Assembly (NCBI GenBank): GCA_965218435.1
Contig: CBDCKW010000009.1
Coordinates: 2,656,001 to 2,720,000, forward strand
From: Truepera sp.
GTDB taxonomy: Bacteria > Deinococcota > Deinococci > Deinococcales > Trueperaceae
Length of the DNA stretch: 64,000 nt
Reading direction: 5' to 3'
This document shows positions 18,709 to 35,343 of this stretch, piece after piece (the first letter of the stretch is position 1; each line of letters begins with the position of its first letter). A program made the translations under genes and the position numbers. The notes beneath the pieces were generated by a model that made no database searches, had not been told where the DNA came from, and saw nothing but the letters and a program-made list of their open reading frames with translations.

Positions 18709-18796
18709 AATAATAGCTCCTTTTCTGTGAGAGTCTAACGCGGGGGCCGGGACCTAAACTGTATAGTTCGATACCAGCGGCGTTTAGACCATACAT

Positions 18797-19659: not shown

Positions 19660-19708
19660 AGGGGCTCCTTAAAATGCGTTTTCCAGCTAAACCGAGTTCG
19701 TAAAACGT

Positions 19709-20113
19709 TTAGGCATCTCCTCCGAGACTGTACTCGAGCACATACCCATGCTCTCTCCCGCTCACTTCTATCGTCATCCGTCCCTCGAGCCCCACCAACT
19801 CACCCGTCCCCGAATCCGGCACGACGGTAACGCTCTGCTCGCCCTTGCCACGGGTCATGGTGCTCGAGTGTTGCAGTACAAACGTTCCCTTTTTCCCCTG
19901 CAACGTAGCGGTAATCTTTTCAATCGCAACGTAACCCGCCGAGCCTTGCGTGTCGGTTCTGGCACTCAGCATTTCGCCTTGGCTCGTTCCCGTTAAGTCG
20001 CCGGTAAACGTCTTGTTGATAGACAACCTACTTAGCAAAGGACTTGCTGCTTCGTCCGTTAGGGGTTGAGGTTTTAGGTCTACGCTGAAAGTTCCGGTGG
20101 CGCGGTTTGTCAT
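19709..20113 (-). CDS. DUF3224 family protein
   Basis: KTFTGDLTG, GSAGYVAIE, GTFVLQH and VVPDSGTGELVGL motifs. Confidence 0.85.
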   Translation of the reverse strand: MTNRATGTFSVDLKPQPLTDEAASPLLSRLSINKTFTGDLTGTSQGEMLSARTDTQGSAGYVAIEKITATLQGKKGTFVLQHSSTMTRGKGEQSVTVVPDSGTGELVGLEGRMTIEVSGREHGYVLEYSLGGDA

Positions 20114-20139
20114 GGGGTTCCTCTTTCTAAGTTTGCAGG

Positions 20140-20559
20140 CTAGAGTTTGAAGGTGTACATCACGACCGGTTCAGCCGCCACCTTAAAAGACTCGTAAAAT
20201 CCTTTTGCCTGCCGGTTTGTATCTTCAGCGCCGAGCCAAGCCTCTTCGCAGCCCAGTTTTTTGCCAAGCTCTAACACGGCGTTCAGCAGCTTGGTGGCAA
20301 TCCCCTGCCGCCGCAAGGCAGGTGTGACGCCTATCTCATCAATAAAAAGTTCAGTTGGTTTATCTGGATGCTTGTGAATAACAGCCGCGACTTGCCCTAC
20401 GACCTCGCCAGCTTTAACAGCGACAATCAGGTGATGCGTAGGTTCGGCGAGATAAGCGGTAAGACGCTCCGGGTAGACGGCTTCATCGAACACGTCCTCG
20501 GCAACGCGCTCGAGGACCGCCTCGTCACCCGGCATAAGCCGTTTTATGTGGATGTCCAT
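20140..20559 (-). CDS. GNAT family N-acetyltransferase
   Basis: LFIDEIGVTPALRRQGIA; SD GGAGG before ATG 20559. Confidence 0.85.
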   Translation of the reverse strand: MDIHIKRLMPGDEAVLERVAEDVFDEAVYPERLTAYLAEPTHHLIVAVKAGEVVGQVAAVIHKHPDKPTELFIDEIGVTPALRRQGIATKLLNAVLELGKKLGCEEAWLGAEDTNRQAKGFYESFKVAAEPVVMYTFKL

Positions 20560-20616
20560 GTTCACCTCCGCTCGAGTGCAGTTTGCCCATGTTACTTATC
20601 AATGTCGCCCGCTACT

Positions 20617-20814
20617 TTACAACTCCTTGAAAGCCAAGCCTTTCTCTTCAAGTGCTCCCCTTAGGATTTTTAAGGCTTTTGGTCCCATACCGTGTAACTC
20701 GCTCAGGTCTTCTTCGCTGACGCGGGTGAGGTGCTCGAGCCTAAAGCAGCCCGACCCATGTAGAGCTCTAAGCGCCGGTTGGCTGATTTTCGGAAAGTCG
20801 TTTTCTTGCTCCAC
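20617..20814 (-). CDS. Small helix-hairpin-helix (alpha-CTD-like) protein
   Basis: PALRAL..LSELHGMGPKAL HhH motif. Confidence 0.7.
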   Translation of the reverse strand: MEQENDFPKISQPALRALHGSGCFRLEHLTRVSEEDLSELHGMGPKALKILRGALEEKGLAFKEL

Positions 20815-20816
20815 CG

Positions 20817-21377
20817 TTACTTCTCCTTCACAACACGAAATCTTAACTGAGTTCTTCCCGAAGACTCGGCCACCTTTACTTTTTCCAGCTCAACCGGTTC
20901 CATGTCTAAACCTTCAAAAAGCCGAAGCCCACCGCCTAAAAGAACGGGCATAATGTCGAGCTCGAGTTCATCAACCACGCCCGCTTTGAGGCACTGCCGA
21001 AACGTACTCGCCCCACCGATGACCGTGACATCTTTGTCGCCTGCGGCTGCTTTAGCCTGTGCAACAGCACTTTCAATTCCGTCAGTGACAAAGGTAACCG
21101 TCAATCTTCCATTCTGTTTGGGTAGTTTTTCCGGAACGTTATGCGTCAGCACAAAAATTGGCACTTGATATTCGTAGGTGTCTAAATAAGCATCCGGGTC
21201 GCCCATTGCGTAAGCGCGTCTGCCCATCACGACGGCTCCGGTGTTTTTGATGGATGCTCGCATTGCCTCACTGTTTTGTAGCTCGGCGAAGTCGGAGTAA
21301 AGGCGGCTTACGCTGCCGTTTTTATCGTTGACGAAACCGTCAAGTGAGACGGTCATACCTAGAATGACTTTACTCAT
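20817..21377 (-). CDS. Dihydrofolate reductase / RibD C-terminal family protein
   Basis: SLDGF, VMGRR, IGGA, VDEL and PVLLGGG motifs. Confidence 0.88.
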   Translation of the reverse strand: MSKVILGMTVSLDGFVNDKNGSVSRLYSDFAELQNSEAMRASIKNTGAVVMGRRAYAMGDPDAYLDTYEYQVPIFVLTHNVPEKLPKQNGRLTVTFVTDGIESAVAQAKAAAGDKDVTVIGGASTFRQCLKAGVVDELELDIMPVLLGGGLRLFEGLDMEPVELEKVKVAESSGRTQLRFRVVKEK

Positions 21378-21446
21378 TACGATTTCTCCTTTTACCCCTC
21401 AGCTGTTGACTCAGGATTGATTGACTAGATAGTGATGAGGTAAACA

Positions 21447-21887
21447 TCATCCTCCCAGCAGTTGCGAAACGATTTTGGCAATCCGCCTTTCTCGAGTCTC
21501 CTGCATTTTTGCGTCTTCAACCTGTCGAACGAACTCCTTGCGCTTTGTAAACGCCAACGCCTCAAAGGTTTTTTTGATACCGACTTTGGTAAGCGCGTTT
21601 GATAAATCATCCGGAATCTCAACCGTGCGAGGTTCGGTGTCCAGCTCGAGCGTCACCTCTACGGCCTCCCCCGCTTTAAGCCCTGCGGCTTCACGGTGCG
21701 CTTTACTGAGTGGAATCATAAAGTTGCCACTCATCACCGCGACGGTACTTAGGTAGCTGTAACTGGAGACGTTCACCTTGACGGCAGGCTTTTTGCTTTC
21801 ACCGAGTTCAGTGATGTTTTCAGGCGGCACTTCGATACCCGTGTTACTGCCAATAGCTTTGATTTTAGTGGTAAAGGTTGTCTTCAT
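21447..21887 (-). CDS. DUF1905 + YdeI/OmpD-associated family protein
   Basis: PRTVEIPDDL and AKMQETRERRI motifs. Confidence 0.8.
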   Translation of the reverse strand: MKTTFTTKIKAIGSNTGIEVPPENITELGESKKPAVKVNVSSYSYLSTVAVMSGNFMIPLSKAHREAAGLKAGEAVEVTLELDTEPRTVEIPDDLSNALTKVGIKKTFEALAFTKRKEFVRQVEDAKMQETRERRIAKIVSQLLGG

Positions 21888-22270
21888 AGCTTGCCTCTTT
21901 TTGCTGCTCTTTCCAGATTTTCCTTCGTCCTAAACGACACAATTCGTCTTATCAAGTCATAAGGGATCGGCTTGTCTAGCGGAAACTGCACCGAACCCTT
22001 AGCATTTTTGTAAGGGGCCAGTTCATCCCTGAAGGCTTGGACGCCCTCAGGCGTGGGGTAAAGCCCAAGGTGCGTTTTGAAAGCGGCAAAGTAAACAAGC
22101 GGCTTGCCCCTGAGCTTAAAGGTCGGGATTTGGTAGCTGATGGTTTCTTCGGCGTCCGGCGCGGCTTTTCTAATCGTCTGCCTCACTTTTGCTAAAATCT
22201 CCTGCACGTCTTCCGGGAAGGCTGCGATGTAGTCGTCTATGGTTTTGGGAATGGCTGCAGTTGATTGCAT
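21884..22270 (-). CDS. DUF1801 (YdhG-like) protein
   Basis: TIDDYI, APDAEETISYQIPTF and KGSVQFPLDKPIP; start reassigned to ATG 22270. Confidence 0.85.
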   Translation of the reverse strand: MQSTAAIPKTIDDYIAAFPEDVQEILAKVRQTIRKAAPDAEETISYQIPTFKLRGKPLVYFAAFKTHLGLYPTPEGVQAFRDELAPYKNAKGSVQFPLDKPIPYDLIRRIVSFRTKENLERAAKRGKL

Positions 22271-22280
22271 AAATTTCCCT

Positions 22281-22826
22281 TTACAACGCGCTGATGTCTC
22301 GAGCCACTTCAGCCAGGTCATTCTCAAACTGGTGTTCACGATCCTCGAACTCGCAAAATGTTGCTTGCGGAAGTTTTTCCCGGTACAGCTCGAGGTGTGT
22401 AAATGGCACGATGTCGTCATCGCGGCTGTGATAGAAAAACAGCGGCAAATCTTTTGGGAGGCTAGGGGCAAAACTTTCGCGCAGTGCATATTCAGCTTGC
22501 CAATCCTCAGCACTCCAGTAAGGCGTTGCGATAAGAAACAATCCCGCGATAGGTTTTGCTACTTCTTCTTCAGACAAATACTTGAGCAGCACCGAAGCAC
22601 CGAATGAATGTCCGACGAGAATGGTTGTGTCACCTTTCATGGTTGAAAGTTCTTCGCCAATCTTCTTTTTCCACGCCTCGTAGCCAAAACTATCATCATT
22701 AGGCATTCTTGGATACGTCACTTCATACCGGGTTCCTAACGTATCACGCAGATTTACTACCAATTTCTCATCTTCTTCGTAGGCTTCTTGTCCGGCGCCT
22801 TGAATAAACAGCACTTGTTTTTTCAT
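22281..22826 (-). CDS. Alpha/beta hydrolase (YdeN/RBBP9-like)
   Basis: GHSFG nucleophile elbow, HSRDDDIVP and C-terminal His. Confidence 0.85.
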   Translation of the reverse strand: MKKQVLFIQGAGQEAYEEDEKLVVNLRDTLGTRYEVTYPRMPNDDSFGYEAWKKKIGEELSTMKGDTTILVGHSFGASVLLKYLSEEEVAKPIAGLFLIATPYWSAEDWQAEYALRESFAPSLPKDLPLFFYHSRDDDIVPFTHLELYREKLPQATFCEFEDREHQFENDLAEVARDISAL

Positions 22827-22904
22827 AAATCTCTATCCCTCTTTAACCCTGGTCATCTTTGACGCGTACCCGCCCCAACCGGATACACCCAAGCTCCGGC
22901 GTTG
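22807..22904 (-). repeat. Junction repeat, copy 2 (remnant 3' end of the DUF1579-like gene plus start of the hydrolase)
   Basis: ~98 bp, similar to 23712-23810 (roughly 85-90% by eye). Confidence 0.85.
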
Positions 22905-22934
22905 TTATAACATCCAGCCACTTCTCAACCTCCA

Positions 22935-23609
22935 TCAGGGCGTAAACCGTTTCCAATGGCCTTCGGAGACAACCTCAACATCACCATCGACCACTTTGAT
23001 GGCGGTCTCATCGTCAATCGCGTACGCTGGCACCGACACCCCGGCCGCCCATTTCTCCGCGTTGGCCACCGTGTTGTGTGGCAGCATCGGGTGTTCCAGG
23101 TGCGGGTAGATGGAGAAATCAACCAGGCCGAGCGTCTCGTCGCCGCCGGTGGGCGGGGTCCACTCGACGAAAAATTCCCCGATCCTGGGCGTCATCACCA
23201 TGCTCCCGGCGCTGAGCCCCACCCAGACCGTCTCGCGCAGCGACGGCAAAAGGTCTGCCAGTCCGGACTGCCGCATCCAGTAGCACAAATACAGAGCATC
23301 GCCGCCAGCCGCCAGCAGGACATCCGTCTCCTGAACCAGAGGAACCCAGCGTGCTTCGTCAATGCTGGGCAGTGCGGTGAGCTCCAGCACACCCAAGGAC
23401 TGCCAACCCAGTTCACACATGGGGGTTTCGGGTTCTCGTCCACTGATGAACTGCCATACCCCCGCTCCTGGACCGACTTGAGGATGCCCGTACATTGCCG
23501 TAGGAATGCAGAGGGCGCTAGCCTCGGCAATCGGTTTGCCCAGGAGTTCGACCAGCGCGTCGTGGATGCTGGTGTTTTTGATACCAGCCGAGGTGAGCAG
23601 AAATTTCAT
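22935..23609 (-). CDS. Peptidase E / S51 family (class I glutamine amidotransferase-like)
   Basis: LLTSAGI, GGDALYL, GLSAGSM and AYAIDD motifs. Confidence 0.85.
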   Translation of the reverse strand: MKFLLTSAGIKNTSIHDALVELLGKPIAEASALCIPTAMYGHPQVGPGAGVWQFISGREPETPMCELGWQSLGVLELTALPSIDEARWVPLVQETDVLLAAGGDALYLCYWMRQSGLADLLPSLRETVWVGLSAGSMVMTPRIGEFFVEWTPPTGGDETLGLVDFSIYPHLEHPMLPHNTVANAEKWAAGVSVPAYAIDDETAIKVVDGDVEVVSEGHWKRFTP

Positions 23610-23711
23610 GATACCTCTCCTTGCCAATTTCGTGGGAGCCGAAAAGTTTTTCTCATCCCTTGATTTGAGACTGAAGCAGCACTAGCCCAGAACGTAATGA
23701 CTGCGTTTCTT

Positions 23712-23810
23712 AACAGCACTTGTTTTTTCACAAATTTCTACCCCTCTTCAATCCTGGTCATCGTTGACGCGTACCCACCCCCACTCGGATATACCCAGGC
23801 TCCGGCGTTG
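23712..23810 (-). repeat. Junction repeat, copy 1 (3' end of the DUF1579-like gene plus a 7-codon stub of the hydrolase start)
   Basis: GTG AAA AAA CAA GTG CTG TTA stub matches MKKQVL of 22281..22826. Confidence 0.85.
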
Positions 23811-24193
23811 GTGTTGCCGTCGTCGCGCCACTTGCCCCGGTAACGAGCAGGCGAACCCTTTTCACCCGCCCAAATAGTAAGGGTATCGTCATTCACTTCG
23901 TACACGTACTCGAAGGTGTTGCCCGCGTTGTCGTAGATACGCGATTTGATGTCTTGGCTCGGCTCCGCCCCGAAGCCCTTTTCGTAACCGATCAGCTCGA
24001 GCCCCTTGACCTTATGCCCGCTATGGATGAAGTCAAAGTGTTGCACCAGAAAGAAGCCACCCTCGAGCCACTCGTACCTGACCTGTCCCGCGATATCCGG
24101 GCCGGAGACGTTCCAGGTTCCTATTAGTTTCTCGAGGCTTTTGAGACCGGGATAGCGTTCTGGTTGCTGTGCCGTTTTACCCGCATCTGACAT
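23738..24193 (-). CDS. DUF1579-like beta-barrel hypothetical protein
   Basis: LIGTW, YEWLEGGFFL and GAWVYPSGGGY; start ATG 24193. Confidence 0.65.
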   Translation of the reverse strand: MSDAGKTAQQPERYPGLKSLEKLIGTWNVSGPDIAGQVRYEWLEGGFFLVQHFDFIHSGHKVKGLELIGYEKGFGAEPSQDIKSRIYDNAGNTFEYVYEVNDDTLTIWAGEKGSPARYRGKWRDDGNTNAGAWVYPSGGGYASTMTRIEEG

Positions 24194-24206
24194 GAGGTTG
24201 CCTCCT

Positions 24207-25076
24207 CTAGCCTTGCTCATAGGCACGCCGCAGGGCGTCCCCATCGATCTTTTTCATCCCCATCAGCGCCTCGGTGACTTGGGCCGCCCTTTGACGGTCG
24301 GGGTCAGCCATCAGCTTGAGTGCTCCTATCGGCACGATCTGCCACGACACGCCGTATTTGTCCTTGAGCCAGCCGCACTGACTCTCTTTACCCTCTGCGG
24401 TAAATTCGTCCCACAGCGCGTCAACTTCGGCCTGCGTCTCACAATTGACAAACAGCGAGACGGCTTCGGTAAACCCGAACTCGTGCTTTTCGGCGCTGTC
24501 CATTGCGATAAAGGTCTGACCGGCGAGAGTGAACTGAGCGTAGTCAACATTCGCCGACTCAGGATTTTTCATCATCTGGTTGAGGCTCGAGTCTTCAAAG
24601 AGCGAGCTATAAAGCCCAATAGCTTCCTCTGCCTTGCCACACTGTTCCCCGACGAAAAGTAGAAACGGGGTGATGGTTTGAGCACTGCTCCCATCCACAC
24701 CGATTTGCCACGAAACCCCGTACTTGTCGTTCAGCCAGCCGTATTTTTCGCTCCAGTCGTACTTCTGAAAGGGCATCAGCACCGTGCCGCCTTCAACAAG
24801 TTTTTCCCACAAGGCGTTCACTTCAGCGACTGTCTCTAAGGTCACAAAAAACGAAATTGCCGGTGTAAAGCTGAACTCCGGGCCACCGTTTAAGGCGATG
24901 AAGTTTTGGTTCTCGAGCGTAAAATTTACCGTCATTACGCTGCCGCTGCGTTCTGGGTGTGTTTCGCCGTAACGCGCCGTACTCGTAACTTCGGAGTTTT
25001 TGAACAGCGAGGTGTAGAAAGTGACGGCTTCTTCAGCCTGAGTGTCAAACCATAAGAACGGGACGATTTTTTGCAC
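24207..25076 (-). CDS. Tandem PhnB / 3-demethylubiquinone-9 MTase-like VOC protein
   Basis: Two repeats: PFLWF..AEEA..FY, ALNGGP, GWLNDKYGVSWQ and GWLKDKYGVSWQ. Confidence 0.9.
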   Translation of the reverse strand: MQKIVPFLWFDTQAEEAVTFYTSLFKNSEVTSTARYGETHPERSGSVMTVNFTLENQNFIALNGGPEFSFTPAISFFVTLETVAEVNALWEKLVEGGTVLMPFQKYDWSEKYGWLNDKYGVSWQIGVDGSSAQTITPFLLFVGEQCGKAEEAIGLYSSLFEDSSLNQMMKNPESANVDYAQFTLAGQTFIAMDSAEKHEFGFTEAVSLFVNCETQAEVDALWDEFTAEGKESQCGWLKDKYGVSWQIVPIGALKLMADPDRQRAAQVTEALMGMKKIDGDALRRAYEQG

Positions 25077-25100
25077 GAAGGTCTCCTTTTTTGGCTATGG

Positions 25101-26351
25101 TTAATAACGGATACTCGGATGTTTCGAGTGCCACTGGGTTGCTTGTTGAAAGGTATGTGCCCTAGCTAAAACACCGTTCTCATTCCCCTTTGCGCCGACA
25201 ATTTGCAAGCCTAACGGCAAGCCGTTTTGACTGAGGCCACAGGGGATACTTATGGCGGGCAAGCCGTAGTAATTGGCGAAAAACGTATTATCTGGAGAAA
25301 CCGCCAGTGGCCCCGCCGCTTTAGCCTCTCCAATCGTTGGCGTCACAGCCGTCGTGGTAGACAAGACTAAAACGTCAATCTCCTCAAATAGGCTTTGCGA
25401 AATGGTTTCACGGTCTTGTTCTATGGTTTCGCTGTTAGAGGAGGCAGTGTCAAAAGGGGCATCAAGCTCTTTGGCTGTATATCCTAAAGACTGAAAGGTT
25501 TCGACAGCCTTTTGAAAAGCTTCTCTTACCTCATCCGTCGCCTTGAAATTCTTGACCACACCGATAGTGGGTTTGTTCACCTCGTCAAAAGCCGAACGAT
25601 AATCGGTTTTGAGGTCGCTTTGACTCACTTCGGGATGGGCAAGCGCGTTTAACAGGATGGCGGCATCTTCAACCACACGGCATTGAAAACCGGTATGAGA
25701 AAGACGAAGGATTGTTTCATCAGTTTCCTCTCCCTCGAGAACCCCTTTGGTGCTGAGTAAGCCGTAGGTCGCTTTGAACCCCGTGACACCGCAACAGGCT
25801 GCGGGTAAGCGACAAGAGCCGACGGCGTCCGTGTCAACCGTTGCAAAACACAACCCCGCAGCGACGGCTGCCGCCGATCCTCCTGAAGAGCCACCCGCCA
25901 CATATGCCTGGTTCCAAGGATTATGCACAGCTCCAAAATGACTGTCAACCGAGGTTGTGCCCATCCCCAGCTCGTGCATGTTCGTCTTGCCAAGCAGAAT
26001 GGCTCCCGCCATTTTTAACTTTGTGATAACCTCGGCGTCTTTACTTGGCACACGATTCTCAAAATGTTTAGAGGCTGCTGTTGTTTTAATACCTGCCGTA
26101 TCAAAGAAATCTTTGACGGCAACGGGAATACCGTGCAACGAACCTTTCCAGTTGCCGCCGTTGATGTCTCGCTCAGCGTCTTTGGCTTCTTGCAACGCCT
26201 GCTCAGCTGTGACCGTAATAAAGGCGTTGAGTGCTGGATTTAGGTATTCAATTCTTTCGAGGCAGTCTGTAACAAGCTCTACGGGTGATACTTTCTCTTG
26301 TCTTAGCAGTTCGCTTACTTCTGTGATACTTGAATACTGATGGTTAGTCAT
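25101..26351 (-). CDS. Amidase signature family protein
   Basis: LHGIPVAVKD, GKTNMHE, GGSSGGSAAAV and DAVGSCRLPA motifs. Confidence 0.9.
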   Translation of the reverse strand: MTNHQYSSITEVSELLRQEKVSPVELVTDCLERIEYLNPALNAFITVTAEQALQEAKDAERDINGGNWKGSLHGIPVAVKDFFDTAGIKTTAASKHFENRVPSKDAEVITKLKMAGAILLGKTNMHELGMGTTSVDSHFGAVHNPWNQAYVAGGSSGGSAAAVAAGLCFATVDTDAVGSCRLPAACCGVTGFKATYGLLSTKGVLEGEETDETILRLSHTGFQCRVVEDAAILLNALAHPEVSQSDLKTDYRSAFDEVNKPTIGVVKNFKATDEVREAFQKAVETFQSLGYTAKELDAPFDTASSNSETIEQDRETISQSLFEEIDVLVLSTTTAVTPTIGEAKAAGPLAVSPDNTFFANYYGLPAISIPCGLSQNGLPLGLQIVGAKGNENGVLARAHTFQQATQWHSKHPSIRY

Positions 26352-26363
26352 CGTGATGTCTCC

Positions 26364-26432
26364 TCATTTAATTACACGAAACTTGAGGTGGGTGACGCCT
26401 TCGGACTCGAGTATCTATGCACTTTCCAGTTC
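26364..26432 (-). pseudogene. Remnant 3' end of a DHFR/RibD-C gene
   Basis: Reads ELESA*ILESEGVTHLKFRVIK*, similar to the C-terminus VLESPSVTHLRFRVVKEK of 26917..27447. Confidence 0.7.
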
Positions 26433-26441
26433 AAAGCAATT

Positions 26442-26897
26442 TTAGAATTCATTATCTGAGTCAGCGTCTTTTGGTGTTGCAATCAGCTCACCCTGACCTT
26501 TCTCTATGTCTGCCACGAAACCGCCCCAGCCACCGCTTGCCTCTTCCCTTACAGGAGAGGTAATGACAAGCAGCTGCACAGGTTCTTGGTTTTGTATCGT
26601 GTAACCGTGCTCGATACCGCGCGGCAAAAAGATAAAGCCACCTTTCTTTAGGTCAAAGGTCTCGGTACCACATCGAAACGTAAGGACGCCCTCGAGCACG
26701 TAGAACATCTCGTCTTCGCTGTTATGCGTGTGGTCAGGTGGCTCCTCACCTTTTCTCGTAAGGTACTCCAAGACGGCGGAGCCGCTGCCCGCTTGCACCT
26801 CGCCTGCTTTTACAGTGAAGTCAATCCCGAACCTGTACGTCCAGCCCTCACCCGCCTTGAGTGCATAGGAATGAGTCCGACTGTCAAGTCGATTCAT
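26442..26897 (-). CDS. Cupin domain protein (quercetinase-like motif)
   Basis: PPDHTHNSEDEMFYVLEG and LPRGIEHGY motifs. Confidence 0.85.
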   Translation of the reverse strand: MNRLDSRTHSYALKAGEGWTYRFGIDFTVKAGEVQAGSGSAVLEYLTRKGEEPPDHTHNSEDEMFYVLEGVLTFRCGTETFDLKKGGFIFLPRGIEHGYTIQNQEPVQLLVITSPVREEASGGWGGFVADIEKGQGELIATPKDADSDNEF

Positions 26898-26916
26898 GCC
26901 TTTCTCCTTTCCCATA

Positions 26917-27447
26917 TCATTTCTCCTTCACAACGCGGAACCTGAGATGCGTTACGCTAGGGGACTCGAGTACCCTTACCTTCTCGAGTTGGGCCTCCAC
27001 TCCCGACTCGAACAAACGAAGCCCGCCGCCGAACAGCACCGGAACGAGGTGAAGCTGCACTTCGTCAACGAGACCGGCTTTGAGATATTGCTGCGCTATG
27101 TCCGCGCCACCTGCGATGCAAACGTCTCTGTCCCCGGCAGCGTCTTTCGCTCTCTCTAAAGCACTTTCGATGCCGTCGGTAACAAAGATGAACTGTGCAC
27201 CGCTATTCTCTATGCTTTCTCTGGCTTCATGGGAGAGCACAAAATGCGGCACCTTGTAAGGCGTATCGAAACCCTCTGCTTCTCGTGAGCCGCCAAAGGC
27301 ACGTTTACCCATGACCATCGCGCCAATGTTCTGTAACAGCTCGTCAAGAATTTGAGGCCCGTCACCCGAGGGCGAAAAGTACCAGTCGTGCAGCCCGCCG
27401 TCCTCACCGTTCGGCCCGTTGACAAAACCGTCGAGCGATACAGCCAT
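26917..27447 (-). CDS. DHFR/RibD C-terminal family protein, N-terminus possibly eroded
   Basis: SLDGF, VMGKR, AGGA, VDEVQLH and PVLFGGG motifs. Confidence 0.85.
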   Translation of the reverse strand: MAVSLDGFVNGPNGEDGGLHDWYFSPSGDGPQILDELLQNIGAMVMGKRAFGGSREAEGFDTPYKVPHFVLSHEARESIENSGAQFIFVTDGIESALERAKDAAGDRDVCIAGGADIAQQYLKAGLVDEVQLHLVPVLFGGGLRLFESGVEAQLEKVRVLESPSVTHLRFRVVKEK

Positions 27448-27457
27448 ATCTAAACCT

Positions 27458-27913
27458 TTACGCGTTGAACTGTTTGAAATGATGATCTACGTGAAGGTAC
27501 TGTAACCGCGCCCACTCGTTGGGGGTTAGGCGGCCAAAGAAGGGGTGAGGCTGCCGTGTGATGCCTGCTTCTCCTACTTCCACAAATTGCTCGAGTTCAC
27601 GCACCAATCTTTCTTTTTCCCTCTGAAACTCTCGCAGGTCAGAAATCTTGACACTAGGGGCAGTAGGTGTGTTTTTAGATAGACCCTTTGATAAGACTCT
27701 TCGCTTAGCAGTAGGGCCAAAAACACGCCCCATCAACATTTGGCCAACTTTCTTATTACTCAATGCCAGCTCGAGATTCGCCGTGACATGCGCCAGCATC
27801 TGGGCAACGTCCATTTTCCCCCAGAGGGCTTGGCTGTCTGGCGAAAGTTTTTCTAAACGCTCGAGTAAATCCTTATATGCCTGTGGTTGAAGTAAATGGA
27901 GTTCGTATATCAA
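27458..27913 (-). CDS. DUF1569 (DinB-like) protein
   Basis: WGKMDVAQMLAH, HPFFGRLT and HVDHHFKQF; probable TTG start at 27913 after GGAAGGTGG. Confidence 0.8.
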   Translation of the reverse strand: MIYELHLLQPQAYKDLLERLEKLSPDSQALWGKMDVAQMLAHVTANLELALSNKKVGQMLMGRVFGPTAKRRVLSKGLSKNTPTAPSVKISDLREFQREKERLVRELEQFVEVGEAGITRQPHPFFGRLTPNEWARLQYLHVDHHFKQFNA

Positions 27914-27999
27914 ACAACACCACCTTCCTATGCGGTATTGCAGAAATGACAAGGTGTCACGTTCAAATACTTGAGCACTCCGGTTTCTGACTCGCTTTT

Positions 28000-28425
28000 T
28001 CAGCGCTCGAGCATGACTTTCGACGTTTCAAAGTCGGCGGGTGCCGAGCTGTGTTCATAGACGATTTTCCATGTACCGTCTTTTTGCCTCAGCACGACTG
28101 TTACGCGGTTTCGCATTGCCCGTAACGCTTCACCCTTAGCGGATAAACCCCGGTAGGTTACAAATGCATGGGCGACCACGACATCTCGAGCTGACGTTGT
28201 TTGTACCTCAGCAAAGTCAACCGCAACCCGTTCAGTACCCAGCGAGTCGAACCAGTTTGTGACCATGCCGCGCCACGCTTCAGCACCGTCGTACGACCAG
28301 CGGCCCCACATGTCGAAAACGCGCACATCTTGGTCGTAAAGGGCAACGAACGCCTCAACGTCTTTGGCATATACGGCGGCTTTATAGGCGTCTAAAATCT
28401 GTGTGATGGGCTCGAGTTCACTCAT
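28000..28425 (-). CDS. SnoaL/NTF2-like (YybH) protein
   Basis: AKDVEAFVALYDQDVRVFD and WKIVYEHSSAP motifs. Confidence 0.82.
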   Translation of the reverse strand: MSELEPITQILDAYKAAVYAKDVEAFVALYDQDVRVFDMWGRWSYDGAEAWRGMVTNWFDSLGTERVAVDFAEVQTTSARDVVVAHAFVTYRGLSAKGEALRAMRNRVTVVLRQKDGTWKIVYEHSSAPADFETSKVMLER

Positions 28426-29015
28426 TCCAACCTATTTTCCCGAACCTGCTTGTAGATGGCTATCACCACGCCCGTGCCGGTCGTGACGCTCTCGACAAGA
28501 TGAAAAGACGCTTGCACGCCGCCCCCGAACAGCCGTCGTCCGCTGCCCAGCACCACAGGCGCAATCATCAGAAAGTACTCATCAATCACCTTAGCGGCCA
28601 TTAGGGAGCCGATCAGCACACCGCTCCCCATGATTACAAGGTTTCTGTTAGAACTTCGTTTGAAGTCCGCTACAGCAGCTGGAACGTCACCATGCAGTAG
28701 GGTCGAGTTCGGCCACTCGAGACTCATCGCGGCGTCCCTCGAGGCGACGAACTTTTGGGTGTTGTTGAGCGCATCCTTAAATGGGCCGCCTTGGGCGTTC
28801 CAGGCAGCAAGCAAATCCTCGTAGGTGCGCCGCCCGAAGAGCCACGCAAAATCCTCTCCCATCCGCTCGCCCATCTTGGCACCCGTCGTCTCGTCGCCAT
28901 ACGGGAGTGCCCAGCCGCCCTTTCCAAAGCCGTCCCGAGTGTCCTCATCCGGACGGCCCGGCCCTTGCATCACACCGTCAAGCGTTAGCCAGTTCACTAC
29001 GATGACGTTTCCCAT
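28422..29015 (-). CDS. DHFR/RibD C-terminal family protein
   Basis: TLDGVMQGPG, LFGRRTYE, MGSG, IDEY and PVVLGSGRRLF motifs. Confidence 0.88.
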   Translation of the reverse strand: MGNVIVVNWLTLDGVMQGPGRPDEDTRDGFGKGGWALPYGDETTGAKMGERMGEDFAWLFGRRTYEDLLAAWNAQGGPFKDALNNTQKFVASRDAAMSLEWPNSTLLHGDVPAAVADFKRSSNRNLVIMGSGVLIGSLMAAKVIDEYFLMIAPVVLGSGRRLFGGGVQASFHLVESVTTGTGVVIAIYKQVRENRLE

Positions 29016-29047
29016 AGAAAGCCTCCTTTGATTTGCTGAGTGACAAA

Positions 29048-29578
29048 TTACGTTATACGGAGTTGTTGGCGGGTATTGTCCAAAACCGGGGCTTCGTCCG
29101 CGCTCGAGCCGTAAATCCCGGGCACCGACGCCCCGACCAGCCGCAGGTAGACGGTCAGCTGCCCCCGGTGGTGATACCAGTGATTGAACAAAATCGAGCG
29201 CAGCAAGGCGCTCCTGGGCATCACCGCGACTTCGTGACCGTCACTCACCATCCTCCAGGGCGTCGCTAACGCTGCGTCGTCCATGTTGCTGAGGAGCGTT
29301 TTGGCTTTTGCGAGACTGTGCTCGAGAGCCTCCAGCACCTCGGCCAAACTCGTCGCACTCGGCCTCGGCACCTCAGTATTTACGTCGAAGGTCTCTTGCA
29401 CCGAAAGCTCGGCAATCGCGCCGGGTAGGGTGGCAAGGTGCATAGAAAGTTGACCCAGGCTCATCGACTTGTTGTGCGGTTTCCAGCTCAGTTTGTTCTC
29501 GGGCACACGCTCCAAGACCCGCCGCGTCGCCTGTGCTTTTCCGTCCAACTCCTGAAGAAACGCTTCAATCATCGTCAC
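29048..29578 (-). CDS. DinB family protein
   Basis: WKPHNKSMSLGQL and NHWYHHRGQLTVYLR motifs. Confidence 0.88.
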   Translation of the reverse strand: MTMIEAFLQELDGKAQATRRVLERVPENKLSWKPHNKSMSLGQLSMHLATLPGAIAELSVQETFDVNTEVPRPSATSLAEVLEALEHSLAKAKTLLSNMDDAALATPWRMVSDGHEVAVMPRSALLRSILFNHWYHHRGQLTVYLRLVGASVPGIYGSSADEAPVLDNTRQQLRIT

Positions 29579-29584
29579 CGCAAA

Positions 29585-30256
29585 CTACCCTTCCTGCCGA
29601 CCAAGCGGCGTCAGGTCGAGAAACTGCGGCCCCGAAACGAGCAACTCAACCCCCCTGGCAAAGGTCGCGTAGGTGTGGTAGATCTCCTCACCATCACGTA
29701 AAAACACGCTGTACCCCGGAATCTCACCTTTACCGCCCGACCCAAGTCCAGCCCGTTCCAGTTCCTCTTTGTTGCGGTAGTTGACCATCAGCGGCGCAAC
29801 GGCTTCGTCCACGGTGGCGTAAAAGTCGTAGTTGAAATCGTTCCCGTAAGACGACACCCACGGCAGCGTCCAGCCCTTACGCGCTTTCCACGCCTCGAGC
29901 TTTTCTAGCGGTGCGCGGGAGACCATCACAAACGAGGTGTCTTTATCGTGCAGGTGCGTGATGTCACCGAAGTCATCTGCAGCGTAGGAGCAACTCGAGC
30001 AGCCCTCGTCCCACTCGGGGTCGAACATAAAGTGCTGGATGACGAGCTGACGGCGACCGTCGAACAGCCCTAGCAGCGTCGCCTTGCCTTCAGGACTGTC
30101 GAAGGTGTATGTTTTTTCAACTTTGACCATCGGCAACGCTTGGCGTTCGGCACGGAGCGCATCGCGGGCCCAGGTCAGTTCTTTTTCTTTGACGAGGAGT
30201 TTTCTGCGAGCCTCGAGCCACGCGTCTCGAGACATAACCGTCGGGAGTTTGCTCAT
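29585..30256 (-). CDS. DUF899 thioredoxin-like protein
   Basis: LFDGRRQL..HFMF, GCSSCS, VSRAP and LDLTPLGRQE motifs. Confidence 0.88.
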   Translation of the reverse strand: MSKLPTVMSRDAWLEARRKLLVKEKELTWARDALRAERQALPMVKVEKTYTFDSPEGKATLLGLFDGRRQLVIQHFMFDPEWDEGCSSCSYAADDFGDITHLHDKDTSFVMVSRAPLEKLEAWKARKGWTLPWVSSYGNDFNYDFYATVDEAVAPLMVNYRNKEELERAGLGSGGKGEIPGYSVFLRDGEEIYHTYATFARGVELLVSGPQFLDLTPLGRQEG

Positions 30257-30296
30257 GATTCTTGCTCCTCAAAAACCTTGCTTATGCAGTTAAAGT

Positions 30297-30683
30297 TTAG
30301 GCGGGTCCAGCGACTCCAATCAAATTGCCCTCAAGGTCTATGAAATGACCGACAACTACACCTCCCTTTGGGTTTTTAGCCGGTCCCATTACCCGTGTCC
30401 CACCAAGGCTCTCAGCCTTTTGGAGCGCGGCCTCAACATCAGGAACACCAACGTAGAAAATGGCGTGGGCCTCGTAATCCTCACCTCCGCCAATGCCGCC
30501 GGGAATCCCAGTTCCATCGCTAGTTATGTAACGGTTGATAAAGCCATAATTGCCTGTTTGAGAGACCTCTTCTGCAACAGGCGCTTCCGTGTCGAACTCC
30601 CATTCAAAAAGCTCGCCGAAGAAAGCTCGAAGCTTTTTGGGATTTTTTCCAATGACCTCAAAGTGTACAACTGGATTTCCCAT
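30297..30683 (-). CDS. VOC/glyoxalase family protein
   Basis: MGNPVVHFEV, GGIGG, FYVGVPDVEAAL and DLEGNLIG motifs. Confidence 0.85.
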   Translation of the reverse strand: MGNPVVHFEVIGKNPKKLRAFFGELFEWEFDTEAPVAEEVSQTGNYGFINRYITSDGTGIPGGIGGGEDYEAHAIFYVGVPDVEAALQKAESLGGTRVMGPAKNPKGGVVVGHFIDLEGNLIGVAGPA

Positions 30684-30720
30684 AGTTGTCTCCTCCATTG
30701 CTCTTAGCTCGGTTAAAGCC

Positions 30721-31110
30721 TCAGGCATACCGCGCTGGTTTTCGCGCAGGTAGCGGTTTAACCCGCCAGCGCAGATACGCCACAAAGCTCGCCATGATAA
30801 ATAGAACAACTGTGGTCAGGGCACTCGAGATTTCGCCTCTGCTGAAGTGAAAGATAGATGCACTTAGGGTCACCACCATGATGCCTAAAGCGGCGAGCGG
30901 CGTCAGCCAGGGCAGGATGCGCGTCACCCCGGGCAAGATGAGGCCGACCCCGGCGAGCAGTTCGGCGACGCCTAAAAAGAGGCGGAAGAGAAGCCCGAAC
31001 TGTTCATCTAACAGCGCCACGAACTGCGGCGGTGGAAAGAGGAAAAACCAGCTGTGATAGAGAAACTGAGCGGCCAAGAGAGCTTGTAAAATCCAGAGAA
31101 CGATGTTCAT
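30721..31110 (-). CDS. DoxX-like membrane protein
   Basis: LWILQALLA and GVAELLAGVGLILP..LTPLAA; four TM segments. Confidence 0.8.
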   Translation of the reverse strand: MNIVLWILQALLAAQFLYHSWFFLFPPPQFVALLDEQFGLLFRLFLGVAELLAGVGLILPGVTRILPWLTPLAALGIMVVTLSASIFHFSRGEISSALTTVVLFIMASFVAYLRWRVKPLPARKPARYA

Positions 31111-31172
31111 ATTTCCTCCTGAATAACTCAATCTAGTGATGCTTCTAGCATTGGGTCTAGGGTACGTTCGGG

Positions 31173-31706
31173 TTAGGGTCTAGTCGCGGGTTCATAGGTA
31201 AGTAGCAGCACGCCCGCGCCGAGGTCTCTCGAGGCGGTAAGTTTTAGCGGCAATCTGTCCCCGCCCGAGAAGAGGCGCTTGCCGCTCCCGAGGACGAGCG
31301 GGTAGACCATCAGGCGAAGTTCGTCCACGAGACCGTGCCGCAGGAGCGTCTGGACGAAGGTGCCGCTGCCGTAAACGAGGAGGTTCCCGCCTTCTTGCCG
31401 CTTCAGCGCCGCCACCGCGGAGGCCACATCGCCTCTTAGCGCGGTGGCATTCCACTCGAGTGACCTTAGAGTAGTCGTAGCGACGAACTTCGGCAGGCTG
31501 TTCATCCGCTCGCCGAACTCCCCGGTCGCGTTCGGCCAGGACTTGGCGAAGCCCTCGTAGGTCACGCGGCCCAGCAAGAGGGCGTCGCTGGCGAAGAGTT
31601 CGTCGTACTTGAACGTGCCGCCGTCCGGGTTGTAGCCGCTCCGCCAGGGGGTGGCTTCTTCGTACACCCCGTCGAGGGTTAGGAACTCGGTCACGATCAG
31701 CTTCAT
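31173..31706 (-). CDS. DHFR/RibD C-terminal family protein (more GC-rich than its neighbours)
   Basis: TLDGV, LLGRVTYE, YGSG, VDELRL and PLVLGSGKRLF motifs. Confidence 0.88.
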   Translation of the reverse strand: MKLIVTEFLTLDGVYEEATPWRSGYNPDGGTFKYDELFASDALLLGRVTYEGFAKSWPNATGEFGERMNSLPKFVATTTLRSLEWNATALRGDVASAVAALKRQEGGNLLVYGSGTFVQTLLRHGLVDELRLMVYPLVLGSGKRLFSGGDRLPLKLTASRDLGAGVLLLTYEPATRP

Positions 31707-31763
31707 GCGTGCTCCTTTCGCGGCTCATCGCCGCCGGGTCATAAAACAAGTTGGTCTTCTACG

Positions 31764-32168
31764 TTAAGCGCGGTTCGAGATTTGCTGTACGGCCCAGCTG
31801 TTACCGTCAGGGTCACTAAAATAGATAAAGCCCACATTGTCGAGTGGATCGGCTTGAGGGCTGGGGTTCTTACCCAGCACTTTGACTTCACTGACATCTA
31901 CGCCGCGTTCTATAAGCTCCGCACGGGCTGCATGAATATCTTTCACCACTAGCTGTAAGCCTTTGAGTGAGCCTGCGGGCATTTTTGTCATGCCTGTACC
32001 GATAACAACCGAGCAGCCTGAACCACGTGGGGTAAGTTGGATGACCCTGGTGTTTTCGTTCACCTTGGTGTCGTGGTCTACGTTAAACCCGAGTTGGTCT
32101 GCGTAAAAGGCTTTAGCGCGGTCCGAATCAGAGACGGGCACGACGACGACCTCGAGCGTCCAGTTCAT
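31764..32168 (-). CDS. VOC/glyoxalase family protein
   Basis: VPVSDSDRAKAFY, QLTPRGSGCS and FSDPDGNSWAVQ motifs. Confidence 0.88.
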   Translation of the reverse strand: MNWTLEVVVVPVSDSDRAKAFYADQLGFNVDHDTKVNENTRVIQLTPRGSGCSVVIGTGMTKMPAGSLKGLQLVVKDIHAARAELIERGVDVSEVKVLGKNPSPQADPLDNVGFIYFSDPDGNSWAVQQISNRA

Positions 32169-32566
32169 CAGGCGTTTTCTTGTGTCTGGGCGGAGTCGTA
32201 AAGCACGAAGATATTGCCATCGGGGTCTCGAGCCTGTACGTCGGTACCGTAGGGTTGGGCATTGGGCTCGCTTAAGAATGTGACGCCCTTGGCCTTGAGG
32301 TCTTTGTAGGTGCTCGCTATATCCTCCACGTTAAACATCAAGCCGGTGTTGCCACCCACCTTTTCCGGGCTCCAGTTGCCGTAACCGTGCGTGAGGATAA
32401 GGGCGGTACTAGAGCCCTGCGGCACGACCTCGACCCAGCGGTGCCCCTGGTCGTCCATCGGTTCGTCGGTACGTTTTTCAAAGCCGAGTTTGCCCACGTA
32501 AAAGTCGATAGCTCGGTCTAAATCGCTGACGAAAATGTCTGCCGAATAAACTTTGGTGATGCCCAT
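32168..32566 (-). CDS. VOC/glyoxalase family protein
   Basis: VSDLDRAIDFY, RWVEV and RDPDGN motifs. Confidence 0.88.
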   Translation of the reverse strand: MGITKVYSADIFVSDLDRAIDFYVGKLGFEKRTDEPMDDQGHRWVEVVPQGSSTALILTHGYGNWSPEKVGGNTGLMFNVEDIASTYKDLKAKGVTFLSEPNAQPYGTDVQARDPDGNIFVLYDSAQTQENA

Positions 32567-32661
32567 GTTGAACCTCCGAGGTGAAGTTTACCGAGAGCCG
32601 AACCGGATTCGCTTCTCGAAAATTGCGCGTTTAGGCGACCTGCAAAGAAGTGACGCGGTAG
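32520..32661 (-). repeat. Junction repeat B: AraC 3' remnant, promoter and VOC start
   Basis: Similar to 33411-33552; remnant YRVTSLQVA* versus AraC YRATSLRAA*. Confidence 0.88.
32585..32633 (-). promoter_or_regulatory. Putative AraC-dependent promoter (copy B)
   Basis: 26-bp block identical to 33499-33524, 17-bp spacer, TAAACT -10, then GGAGG and ATG. Confidence 0.55.
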
Positions 32662-32696
32662 CGCAATAGTTCCGCTACGAGCGCCGAGCCTACTGG

Positions 32697-33389
32697 CTAT
32701 TTCTGCAACTCGTACTCGTCGTGCCGCCGAATTTTCGAAAAGGCGTCAGCTTGGGGCCAGCCCGCCGGAACCTCTTGCCAAAACTCTTGGCGTCCATAGG
32801 GGGCAATATCGAGATGCCCCGCGATGCTTGACAGCAACTCGACACCACGATTCCTCGTCAGGTATGTCAAGTAAGGTTTTTCGTTTAGTTGCAGATAGAC
32901 GCTGAACCCCGAACCCTCGCCGCCGTCAGGCCCGGTCCACCCCCAGTCCTGGTTAAACGTGCAGTCATAAGAGGAAACCCACGGCACATTCCAGCCCATA
33001 CGTTCTGAATACGCGAGCAATTTTTCGATAGGGGCGCGCGAAACCCTGGTAAAGCTGATGTCGTAAGGGCCGAAATGTGCAAGGTGCGGCACGCAGTTAT
33101 CAGCGTCGTCTGAGCAGAATGGGCACCCCTGTTCCCATGCAGGATCGAACATGAAGTGGTGCAAGATGAGTTGCGATCGGCCCGCGAAAAGCTCGAGCAG
33201 GGTGGTCGGCCCGTCTTCGCCGGTGAAGGTGTAGTTTTCAACCTCCGTCATTGGTAGACGCCTGCGCTGAACCGCAACCGCGTCTCGCAACCGCGTTTCT
33301 GCCTTCTCCAACGGGAGGAGGGCGTTACGAGCGTCGTTCCAGGTCTCGCGCGTGACGATGGGTGGGTGTGCCTTTGACGTATCAATCAT
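32697..33389 (-). CDS. DUF899 thioredoxin-like protein
   Basis: LFAGRSQL..HFMF, GCPFCS, VSRAP and LDIAPYGRQE motifs. Confidence 0.88.
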   Translation of the reverse strand: MIDTSKAHPPIVTRETWNDARNALLPLEKAETRLRDAVAVQRRRLPMTEVENYTFTGEDGPTTLLELFAGRSQLILHHFMFDPAWEQGCPFCSDDADNCVPHLAHFGPYDISFTRVSRAPIEKLLAYSERMGWNVPWVSSYDCTFNQDWGWTGPDGGEGSGFSVYLQLNEKPYLTYLTRNRGVELLSSIAGHLDIAPYGRQEFWQEVPAGWPQADAFSKIRRHDEYELQK

Positions 33390-33410
33390 GCGTCTCTCCT
33401 CCGGTCGCAA

Positions 33411-33552
33411 AGATTGCTTACAAAAACGTCCGCTGAATACAGCTTGGTGATGCTCATGTTGAACCTCCGAAATGAAGTCTAACGAAGGGCGCGGCAGCTT
33501 CGCTTCTCGAAAATTGCGCGTTTAAGCAGCCCGCAATGAGGTCGCGCGGTAG
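33411..33552 (-). repeat. Junction repeat A: AraC 3' end, promoter and ~16-codon VOC stub
   Basis: Stub MSITKLYSADVFVSN from ATG 33457 versus MGITKVYSADIFVSD. Confidence 0.88.
33476..33524 (-). promoter_or_regulatory. Putative AraC-dependent promoter (copy A)
   Basis: Same 26-bp block, 17-bp spacer, TAGACT -10. Confidence 0.55.
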
Positions 33553-34451
33553 TAAGCTGGGGACACGCCCAGCTGCGTCTTAAAAAGCGTGCTGAACGAG
33601 CCCAGGCTCTCAAAACCAATATCGAAACAGATGTCGGTGACGCTCCGGTCGGTGTGCTCGAGGAGAAACCGGGCGTGCTCAAGCCGCTTTTTCGTCACCA
33701 GCTGATGGGGCGTTTCGCCGTAAACCCGTTTGAACAGCCGCAAGAGGTGATGCGGCGACAGTTCGGCGGCCTCGGCAATCCGGGACAGGCCGATGGGTTC
33801 CAAAAAACTCGCCTCGATAAAGTCGCGGGCACACCAGAGCCGACGGTAGGCTTCGACTTTAGTTGCGTAACGCACTGCCGGAAGCTTTTCGATTTCTCTA
33901 TAAATATCGTAGTGCAGGTGCAGCAGGCGCTCGAGAATCGGGTGGAAGAGGGTCTCGAGGGCGCTCTGGCTCTCGCGTAGGTCTCGAGAGTCGACCTCAT
34001 AAAGATGCCCTTGCAAATGACCCAGGAGCGAAGTCAGAACCGGGTCGTTCGGATAGGTTCGTTCAAAAAATTCTAGCGGCTTACCGGATGTTCCAGGATC
34101 GTCCAAAAGGCGTTCGGTCGGCGTCGTCAGGCTCGCTGCAACCTCTGCGGCAAGACCGCTGCGAAACATCAGCAGAAACACTTCGGCGTCATCTTCAACC
34201 GCGTGAGCGTGACGCTGTTTATCGTTTAAGAGGAGGTAGCGGCCCGGTGTCACCGCAAACCGTGCCCGGCCTACCTCGTTGATCTCGCACCCGCTGCGGA
34301 CGGTTTTCAGCGACAGCGGCCCCGAATGTTCAAGGTAGGTCACGCCGGACGCCCGCCCGCACATGATCATATTGGGCCAGCCGAGTGTCGGACAAGGCGC
34401 GTTCATATCGAGACCCTGCTGCTGCGGTTCGCTGTAATCACGGACGATCAT
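33522..34451 (-). CDS. AraC family transcriptional regulator
   Basis: C-terminal double HTH LSPHHLLRLFKRVYGETP..SVTDICFDIGFESLGSFSTLFK; N-terminal sensor with GPLSLK. Confidence 0.92.
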   Translation of the reverse strand: MIVRDYSEPQQQGLDMNAPCPTLGWPNMIMCGRASGVTYLEHSGPLSLKTVRSGCEINEVGRARFAVTPGRYLLLNDKQRHAHAVEDDAEVFLLMFRSGLAAEVAASLTTPTERLLDDPGTSGKPLEFFERTYPNDPVLTSLLGHLQGHLYEVDSRDLRESQSALETLFHPILERLLHLHYDIYREIEKLPAVRYATKVEAYRRLWCARDFIEASFLEPIGLSRIAEAAELSPHHLLRLFKRVYGETPHQLVTKKRLEHARFLLEHTDRSVTDICFDIGFESLGSFSTLFKTQLGVSPAYYRATSLRAA

Positions 34452-34520
34452 CGTTCTCCTTAGCTATCGCTAAAAACGGTTTCTGACGTCGAGGCTCTAT
34501 GCGTCCAAAGCCTTTTGAAA

Positions 34521-34880
34521 CTAAGCTTCCGGCTCCGCCCATACCGCAAACTCATTCCCACTCGGCTCGGTAAAGTGAAACCGTTTGCCACCGGGAAACG
34601 TATAGATCGGCCTAACGACCCGACCACCCGCAGCGGTAACTTTGGCAAGCGTTTCTTCAAGGTGCTCGCTGTAAAAGATAAGGAGCGCACTTCCGGCATC
34701 CGTACGTGCGACAAGCTCGGAGGTGAAAAAGCCACCGTCGAGACCTGCATCCGAAAAAGCAGCATAGTCAGGGCCGTAATCTACAAACGACCAACCGAAC
34801 GCAGCCTGAAAAAACGCTTTGGTTGCCCCTAAATCTTTAGCTGGATATTCGGCGTAATCGAGTTTTTCGTGCGTCGCCAT
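34521..34880 (-). CDS. VOC family protein
   Basis: DYAEYPAKDL, WSFVDYGPDY and FPGGKRFHFTEPSGNE motifs. Confidence 0.88.
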   Translation of the reverse strand: MATHEKLDYAEYPAKDLGATKAFFQAAFGWSFVDYGPDYAAFSDAGLDGGFFTSELVARTDAGSALLIFYSEHLEETLAKVTAAGGRVVRPIYTFPGGKRFHFTEPSGNEFAVWAEPEA

Positions 34881-35023
34881 ATCGAACTCCCTCTCAAGTA
34901 CCTTAAATATTAAGGTACTTGGAGTGTAACTGAACTCACCTAGAAACGCAAGTCCTTCGGGACAAAAACGAAACTGCAAACCGGACTACACACTTACCTT
35001 ATTTATTTAGGTATTATTCCTGT

Positions 35024-35335: not shown

Positions 35336-35343
35336 GGAGGTCT

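Follow-up and report, generated by a model that had tools for sequence, protein, structure and literature searches.

How did a complete DUF899 gene come to lie between two diverged copies of the same AraC-promoter-VOC junction, inside a gene array that has no recombinase? The window, that is, the whole 64,000-nt stretch of DNA analyzed here, corresponds to C9:2656001-2720000 of a 4.8-Mb, 9-contig genome (G000), and the array in question is:

18292..34883, minus strand: same-strand array of about 29 small genes (VOC, four RibD_C, two DUF899, DinB, SnoaL, amidase, peptidase S51 and others), from ORFs and a Pfam scan

Our preferred reading, held tentatively at a probability of roughly 0.4, is that this locus bears a scar left when a gene was gained from a related lineage without a recombinase, via one-sided, homology-anchored integration (HFIR-type displacement).

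Self-comparison by BLAST gave an ungapped direct repeat of 140 nt (32522-32661 and 33413-33552; 79% identical, E 6e-28), with a spacing of 891 nt and 751 nt in between that enclose DUF899; the coordinates in the original prediction are off by at most 2 nt, and its peptides agree. In each copy the final 10 codons of AraC lead, via a tract of 27 identical nt and a spacer, to a -10-like hexamer, which is followed by an SD-ATG tract of 16 identical nt and by the first 15-16 codons of VOC. Read along the minus strand, the order is intact AraC, motif, -10-like hexamer, SD, 16 VOC codons within a 23-aa stub ORF, DUF899, 35 nt, 10 AraC codons, motif, -10-like hexamer, SD and intact VOC. A third full junction copy is absent from the genome, where only the operator-like core recurs (three sites, contig C5). 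The individual features are:

33522..34451, minus strand: intact AraC-family regulator, 309 aa (HTH_18, E 1.9e-24; orthologs in six related loci with 61-83% nucleotide identity)
33413..33552, minus strand: upstream junction copy (AraC end, putative operator/promoter, VOC start), from the repeat comparison
33502..33523, minus strand: operator-like motif AAACGCGCAA(T/G)(T/A)TTCGAGAAGC, overlapping the AraC stop, from a motif search
33476..33481, minus strand: -10-like hexamer TAGACT of the upstream copy, read from the sequence and missed by a sigma-70 consensus scan
33386..33457, minus strand: VOC stub, 16 VOC codons reading into the DUF899 leader to give a 23-aa ORF, read from the sequence
32697..33389, minus strand: captured DUF899 gene, 230 aa, intact, with its own GGAGG (PF05988, E 6.7e-64)
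32662..32696, minus strand: 35-nt spacer up to the downstream illegitimate joint, not resembling the AraC body
32522..32661, minus strand: downstream junction copy with a 10-codon AraC remnant (stop 32631-32633), motif (32611-32632), -10-like hexamer TAAACT (32585-32590) and intact VOC start, from the repeat comparison
32168..32566, minus strand: intact VOC/glyoxalase gene, 132 aa (PF00903, E 9.4e-18; first 120 alignment columns 90-92% identical to related locus L050)

The joint between stub and DUF899 lies at about 33411, and the similarity of the leader to a DUF899 homolog extends to 33412. As the TGA of the stub ORF overlaps the DUF899 ATG (ATGA), translational coupling of the VOC stub to DUF899 is possible.

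Read-derived contigs from public runs cross both inner joints. The whole upstream copy and both its flanks lie inside one 621-nt contig (run X2, 33192-33812) with 0 differences, the downstream inner joint is crossed by a 151-nt contig of another study (run X3, 32555-32705, depth 2), and depth across the locus is continuous in X1 and X2, which represent one sample, possibly the source; all four runs consist of contigs, not long reads. None of the 15 joints listed, out of 60 in public runs, bypasses DUF899. Based on these contigs and the continuous depth a chimeric assembly, which the original prediction had named as a possible refutation, is unlikely. The sample does contain relatives in which the same genes are ordered differently, as a chimera of two co-occurring relatives would require; still, with both inner joints bridged (one with 0 differences at full depth), even depth, and neither a recombinase nor a tRNA-like RNA family nor an inverted repeat at the site, such a chimera or an eroded integrase or transposon insertion is very improbable. 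In X1 and X2, over window positions 18000-35500, co-occurring relatives carry the same genes reordered, for example with a direct VOC-peptidase S51 joint, and many single-base differences separate the dominant strain from the window.

The original prediction had also described the route as integrase-free, and this holds for the array as a whole. A Pfam scan of the 29 array ORFs, which is the search that covered serine recombinases and transposases, found no recombinase; the window has no PF00589 match, the nearest lying 39 kb from the array, and the interval between the junction copies holds DUF899 only and no integrase. At the capture site there is no tRNA-like RNA family, no Rfam match and no inverted repeat. 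Gene order within the array varies among relatives and co-occurring organisms, gaps at eight gene pairs range from -4 to 13 nt, and many genes overlap or are coupled. Integron cassette arrays are likewise long same-strand runs of small genes with variable order and a first slot beside a promoter. The array studied here resembles them in these respects and differs in having no integron integrase, no attC-like repeat and many overlapping or coupled genes. An integron or other site-specific element was considered as a candidate and rejected, as no integrase, attC-like intergenic repeat or RNA family was found.

Differences between the two junction copies fall on codon positions 1:2:3 as 5:0:7 over 48 VOC nucleotides and as 0:3:5 over 30 AraC nucleotides, with pS of 0.64 versus pN of 0.12 in the VOC part and pS of 0.64 versus pN of 0.16 in the AraC tail. 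The synonymous and nonsynonymous count proposed in the original prediction thus gives substitutions that are not random over codon positions. As a refutation test, however, the codon-position comparison is too lenient: when a duplication starts out identical, every position is present once in a functional and once in a decaying copy, so that a certain third-position excess would arise in any case. Our null was therefore simulated as exactly that process, for VOC codons 2-15 and with 15,640 conditioned draws. The 10 differences in these codons include 0 at position 2 (P 0.023, or 0.013 with at most four amino-acid changes), and at 8 of 10 sites the stub-specific base is seen in the intact VOC gene of at least one of seven relatives, a level that 0 of 20,000 random draws reached. 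These results support the view, put forward in the original prediction, that the copies evolved as functional sequence in different genomes and were then joined: DNA of two lineages meets at this locus, and selection acted on both halves as they diverged. A 140-nt target duplication, identical at first, whose unused halves then decayed, possibly with later recombinational replacement of the intact VOC start, is largely refuted by the same numbers and by a stub without second-position change, stop or indel. We consider it improbable, although the 27- and 16-nt tracts shared by the copies differ in G005, G002 and G001, and although a second repeat pair in the window and ten other scars in the genome, described below, do fit such a process.

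Comparison with relatives bears on which copy was there first. A search of 60 other genomes yielded AraC orthologs in 7, and a motif search added nine metagenome loci, four with AraC (or its tail), promoter and VOC, one with promoter and VOC without AraC, and four with the motif before other genes. A single AraC-promoter-VOC junction occurs in G005, G002, L043, L050 and L051, which are other species and not strains. The search for the same junction duplication in related arrays, suggested along with the original prediction, came back empty for all 14 related loci, and in none of the nine metagenome loci from the motif search does DUF899 occupy the first slot. The downstream copy looks resident, because L050, one of the two closest loci, matches its VOC start at 10 of the 11 differing sites (the upstream copy at 1) and shares the RibD-DoxX-DUF899 block further downstream, 81-85% identical and likewise ordered; the VOC stub probably came in together with DUF899. 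The opposite assignment of the stub as resident, drawn from G005 alone, was dropped once L050 was considered. Trees leave G000, G005 and L050 unseparated for AraC and most VOC branches unresolved, and a scan of genome contigs with VOC returned only distant relatives (33-47%).

The captured DUF899 has matches at E<=1e-90 in none of 127 other genomes of its family and in 17 of 125 genomes of family f2, and the named DUF899 homologs are from Deinococcus. Of 18 DUF899 loci retrieved from other genomes, 14 were examined, and none of these is a donor in which a VOC stub is joined to DUF899. In G001 (L011:15981-16382) the AraC promoter is followed directly by a YCII-domain gene to which an 8-codon VOC stub is joined in frame. 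The first slot has thus been replaced at least twice within the genus, with DUF899 here and with YCII there. Locus L048 carries a promoter-VOC-peptidase S51 block without AraC behind an unrelated gene, and hence the junction can move alone. In L044, about 2.0-2.2 kb downstream of the motif, an orphan DUF899 tail is followed by a DinB head, and neither gene is intact on the contig.

Any mechanism needs two non-homologous joints. Under the displacement that we prefer, it would be simplest if the stub-DUF899 joint were the older one, formed in the donor by analogy with the stub-YCII joint of G001, and the second were made on entry. The donor array would already have read AraC, operator/promoter, truncated VOC start and DUF899. 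Pairing and crossover of a linear donor piece would have taken place in the AraC gene of the recipient, where identity among the closest relatives is about 80%. The other end of the piece, 35 nt past the DUF899 stop, would have been attached to the recipient chromosome by an illegitimate joint some 10 codons upstream of the AraC stop. The recipient's own AraC tail, promoter and VOC would thereby have been displaced downstream and retained, so that one AraC-responsive promoter would now have DUF899 as its first gene and the old array would keep the second. Within this scheme we infer the resident copy, the crossover site, uptake by natural transformation and the function of both promoters.

One-sided integration anchored in AraC is favored as a single geometry covers both the focal locus and the one-ended scars found elsewhere: on C9, 3′ remnants lie downstream of the intact gene and 5′ remnants upstream, as displacement predicts. 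AraC orthologs at 80-83% identity could have served as a homologous anchor, though no crossover point was found, and near both joints, where HFIR would leave 3-10 bp of microhomology, short matches occur against proxy relatives, taken in place of the true donor and recipient. No deletion is seen, but what was replaced would have been homologous AraC and hence would not show as a loss. Each of the 6 genus genomes has ComEC and DprA; both also score in control genomes such as E. coli, and their presence therefore does not demonstrate natural competence. Several observations count against displacement. L050 leans to the upstream copy in its 5′ half (11:6) and to the downstream copy in its VOC half (1:10; Fisher P 0.006, with the breakpoint chosen after seeing the data), a split not predicted for a single-donor upstream copy unless the donor was a mosaic or conversion followed. 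Further, no donor with the exact stub-DUF899 joint was found among the loci above, ten other scars show neutral decay, and contig C5 lacks an orientation bias. Finally, in the passages of PMC3240628 that deal with it, HFIR is rare and normally deletes about as much as it inserts.

The split in L050 is what a close rival would explain best. In this account an 891-bp donor circle (AraC tail, promoter, VOC stub, DUF899) recircularized and entered by a single crossover at the resident junction, the exchange probably falling in the identical 16-nt SD-ATG tract, and left two reciprocal hybrids. Over 136 nt, L050 is indeed best matched by a hybrid of upstream 5′ and downstream 3′ halves (119 identities, versus 110 and 114 for the real copies and 105 for the reverse hybrid), and in E. 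coli 56 of 60 clones had duplications of 109-950 bp produced by recircularization and a single crossover (PMC3240628, as far as its account of these clones goes). The 5′-half lean of 11:6 is, however, not significant alone and the breakpoint is post hoc; G005 is mixed, with the reverse hybrid barely better than the upstream copy (106 versus 105); the crossover would have to fall within only 140 nt at 79% identity; and most other scars have one gene end only. We regard the circle as possible, if rather doubtful. Alternatively, a foreign second AraC-VOC array may have landed in tandem and been trimmed by two later deletions while selection kept both promoters. Two-lineage divergence would be explained here too, and arrays of relatives are heavily shuffled and carry remnants, such as the DUF899-tail/DinB-head fragment of L044. 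Such a course takes more steps, and the 5′ remnants downstream and 3′ remnants upstream that it leads one to expect are nearly absent on C9; we find it unlikely.

The array contains further scars, found by self-comparison, the first of which surrounds a peptidase gene:

23712..23810, minus strand: upstream copy of the second scar, the end of a 151-aa gene plus a 7-codon alpha/beta hydrolase stub
22935..23609, minus strand: peptidase S51 gene inside the second pair, found directly after VOC in G002, L050 and L048
22807..22904, minus strand: downstream copy of the second scar, a frameshifted remnant of the 151-aa gene end plus the intact hydrolase start
26367..26431, minus strand: third array scar, a decayed RibD_C 3′ end with an internal stop, beyond a cupin gene

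In the second pair (99 nt, 89% identical) the end of one gene is followed after 6 nt by the start of another, and the promoter motif is missing. By hand count its upstream-gene part has 4 synonymous changes, 3 non-synonymous changes and 1 frameshift, a pattern that fits plain decay. The alpha/beta hydrolase is absent from 200 other genomes at E<=1e-45, so this pair could not be polarized. At window positions 20620-20814 (minus strand), an uncalled 65-codon ORF without a Pfam match resembles the N-terminal extension of P0003.

Similar scars were sought across the genome by probing gene ends against their own 12-kb surroundings and scoring repeats outside called genes, with two mirror entries (opposite-strand neighbors) set aside. 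On C9, 3′ ends were repeated downstream in 17 entries versus 0 upstream, and 5′ ends upstream in 5 versus 0 downstream. Five of the 3′ entries were dropped (an intergenic 22-mer, a 20-nt IS end, an IS transposase copy, a 132-nt local repeat and one beside an integrase); with one locus added this left 16 loci, two of them in the window and thus about 14 elsewhere on C9. A second probe of 3′ ends on C9 gave 11 downstream versus 1 upstream at >=36 bits and 13 versus 4 at >=28 bits. C5, which shows no orientation bias, and C8 were left out of the scar set. C8 (21 kb, in G000) is an apparently perfect 10.5-kb tandem repeat and is probably an uncollapsed circular plasmid. Examples from C9 are:

G000:C9 2473160/2474364: mutL scar
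G000:C9 2731732/2732509: aspS scar
G000:C9 3587654/3588654: purA scar
G000:C9 675753/677113: rimO scar
G000:C9 2338757/2339429: cax scar
G000:C9 1164057/1164969: further gene-end remnant

The inserts at these roughly 14 further remnants measure 0.7-11 kb and contain no integrase, their cargo including a CopG antitoxin, an HD-domain gene and a phosphotransferase. Layouts in relatives include both the empty site and the donor-like state: purA (in G005 and G002) and a response regulator (in G005) run straight into the sequence that follows the remnant here, and in G002 aspS and a Rieske gene are followed immediately by the inserted sequence, without a gene-end remnant. For ten scars with outgroups, changes at codon positions 1:2:3 are 14:19:21 on the remnant branch and 1:2:13 on the functional branch, with 34 ambiguous, and 6 of the 10 remnants carry a stop or frameshift. 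A pooled codon-position count of 129:57:54, which takes in an IS copy and a miscalled start, was set aside. By the branch counts, the copies at the ten tested scars were nearly identical at the start and then mostly decayed neutrally. Since remnant-branch changes are so nearly even there, two-lineage divergence is a feature of the focal locus and not the rule for such scars. The original prediction, which took the 22.8/23.7-kb pair as a second case, had proposed a recurrent accretion route that places genes under the same promoter. Similar integrase-free scars do recur on C9, but in the form given the proposal is not supported: that pair is the one above that lacks the motif and fits plain decay, and since many of the scars lie behind housekeeping genes (purA, mutL, rimO, aspS) the route is not specific to the promoter or the array. 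The approximately 16 scars, together with the donor-like layouts in relatives, make a usable data set for testing one-sided recombination in natural genomes and any role of the word CTCGAG, to which we return below.

The operator-like motif has five matches in the genome and is present in 4 of 5 genus relatives. At 5 of 5 own sites a TAnnnT hexamer follows 19-20 nt after the motif, which would be an AraC site at the -35 position. Three matches lie outside the array:

G000:C5:460128, 512483 and 539005: further motif copies, each with a -10-like hexamer, upstream of two RibD_C genes and one amidase gene, kinds also found in the array

These copies on C5 are probably a dispersed AraC regulon. Together with the motif and the fixed hexamer distance, they suggest that both junction copies would act as AraC-activated promoters. 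A sigma-70 consensus scan gave no site at either copy, which an activator-dependent promoter would escape, and terminator-like sites were at chance level only. A search of the openly available literature found nothing on this AraC-VOC array or on DUF899 with glyoxalase and AraC.

Insertion with long target duplication reportedly goes back to Nobusato et al. 2000, as cited by Furuta et al. 2010. In the parts of Furuta, Abe and Kobayashi 2010 (PMC2853133) that characterize such insertions, they lack mobile genes, their repeats often span start or stop sites, and they occur mostly in competent species. Measured against that description, the focal locus is alike in its small insert (<20 kb), a direct repeat of >30 bp over stop and start that keeps the target genes intact, the absence of a mobile-element gene in or beside the insert, and a single-copy empty site in relatives. 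It is unlike it in that the cargo is DUF899 only and not restriction-modification (criterion i of Furuta et al.), in that the copies are 79% identical under a purifying-selection pattern and hence no copied target, and in that the repeat includes a promoter. HFIR, known in S. pneumoniae, A. baylyi and P. stutzeri according to the summary in PMC3240628, shares with this locus a gain of about 1 kb and the lack of a dedicated recombinase and, under the displacement reading, would also share one homologous anchor plus one illegitimate joint; in contrast to HFIR as summarized there, no net deletion is visible here and the anchor would be homeologous (about 80%). HFIR has also been proposed for the V. 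cholerae T6SS, rhs and cdi displacement arrays (Kirchberger et al. 2017, PMC5361080). As portrayed in the relevant sections of that paper, entry occurs at the array front behind a conserved anchor, with old sequence and gene-end remnants shifted downstream, much as here, whereas the cargo here is small metabolic and stress genes of an AraC regulon instead of toxin-immunity pairs, and the promoter is duplicated. The form of the scar is thus already published as insertion with long target duplication. Taken by itself, the locus therefore changes little; new are the first-slot capture behind an AraC promoter and a post-hoc hint of some joints starting at CTCGAG. It does offer an unusually readable snapshot of operon gene gain without an integrase, in which the newcomer falls under the resident regulator and the old genes keep a promoter.

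The word CTCGAG occurs at 2.06 per kb genome-wide, 6.7-fold over base composition (2.36 per kb in the window), and makes up 5393 of 9964 Leu-Glu dicodons (54%). It is similarly enriched in genus relatives, 24-fold in family f5 and not in f2 loci. Numerous other palindromes are strongly avoided, among them GGCGCC, GGGCCC and TTTAAA (0.014, 0.044 and 0.045 of expectation). Remnants start within a few bases of CTCGAG at 3 of 14 loci (3 of 13 with the second probe), or at 4 of 14 counting the functional copy (P 3e-4, with 2.4% expected per locus; post hoc); at the focal locus the word is at neither joint. A wider proposal would make the AraC-tail/operator/VOC-start junction an interspecies anchor, an integrase-free first slot in which genes of relatives repeatedly end up right behind the AraC promoter and coupled to a VOC stub, with CTCGAG supplying or marking illegitimate joints genome-wide. 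We hold this combination to be quite unlikely, the CTCGAG link being weakened because it is post hoc, involves three or four loci, and could reflect motif conservation biasing alignment starts. If true, it would assign a testable part in gene gain to a HIP-type word. HIP1 is cited in connection with illegitimate recombination by Elhai 2015 (PMC4390886), whose passages on this point do not mention CTCGAG itself; we found no literature on CTCGAG in this bacterial group.

Elsewhere in the genome, locus L133 (G000:C5:160800-166700) contains a vanHAX cluster in which VanH, the D-Ala-D-Lac ligase and VanX pass the generic NCBIfam cut-offs. To our knowledge, such a cluster is unexpected in this phylum. 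Its VanR/VanS-like regulators are closest to the VanO type, below cut-off, and a tyrosine-recombinase match lies just upstream of the cluster.
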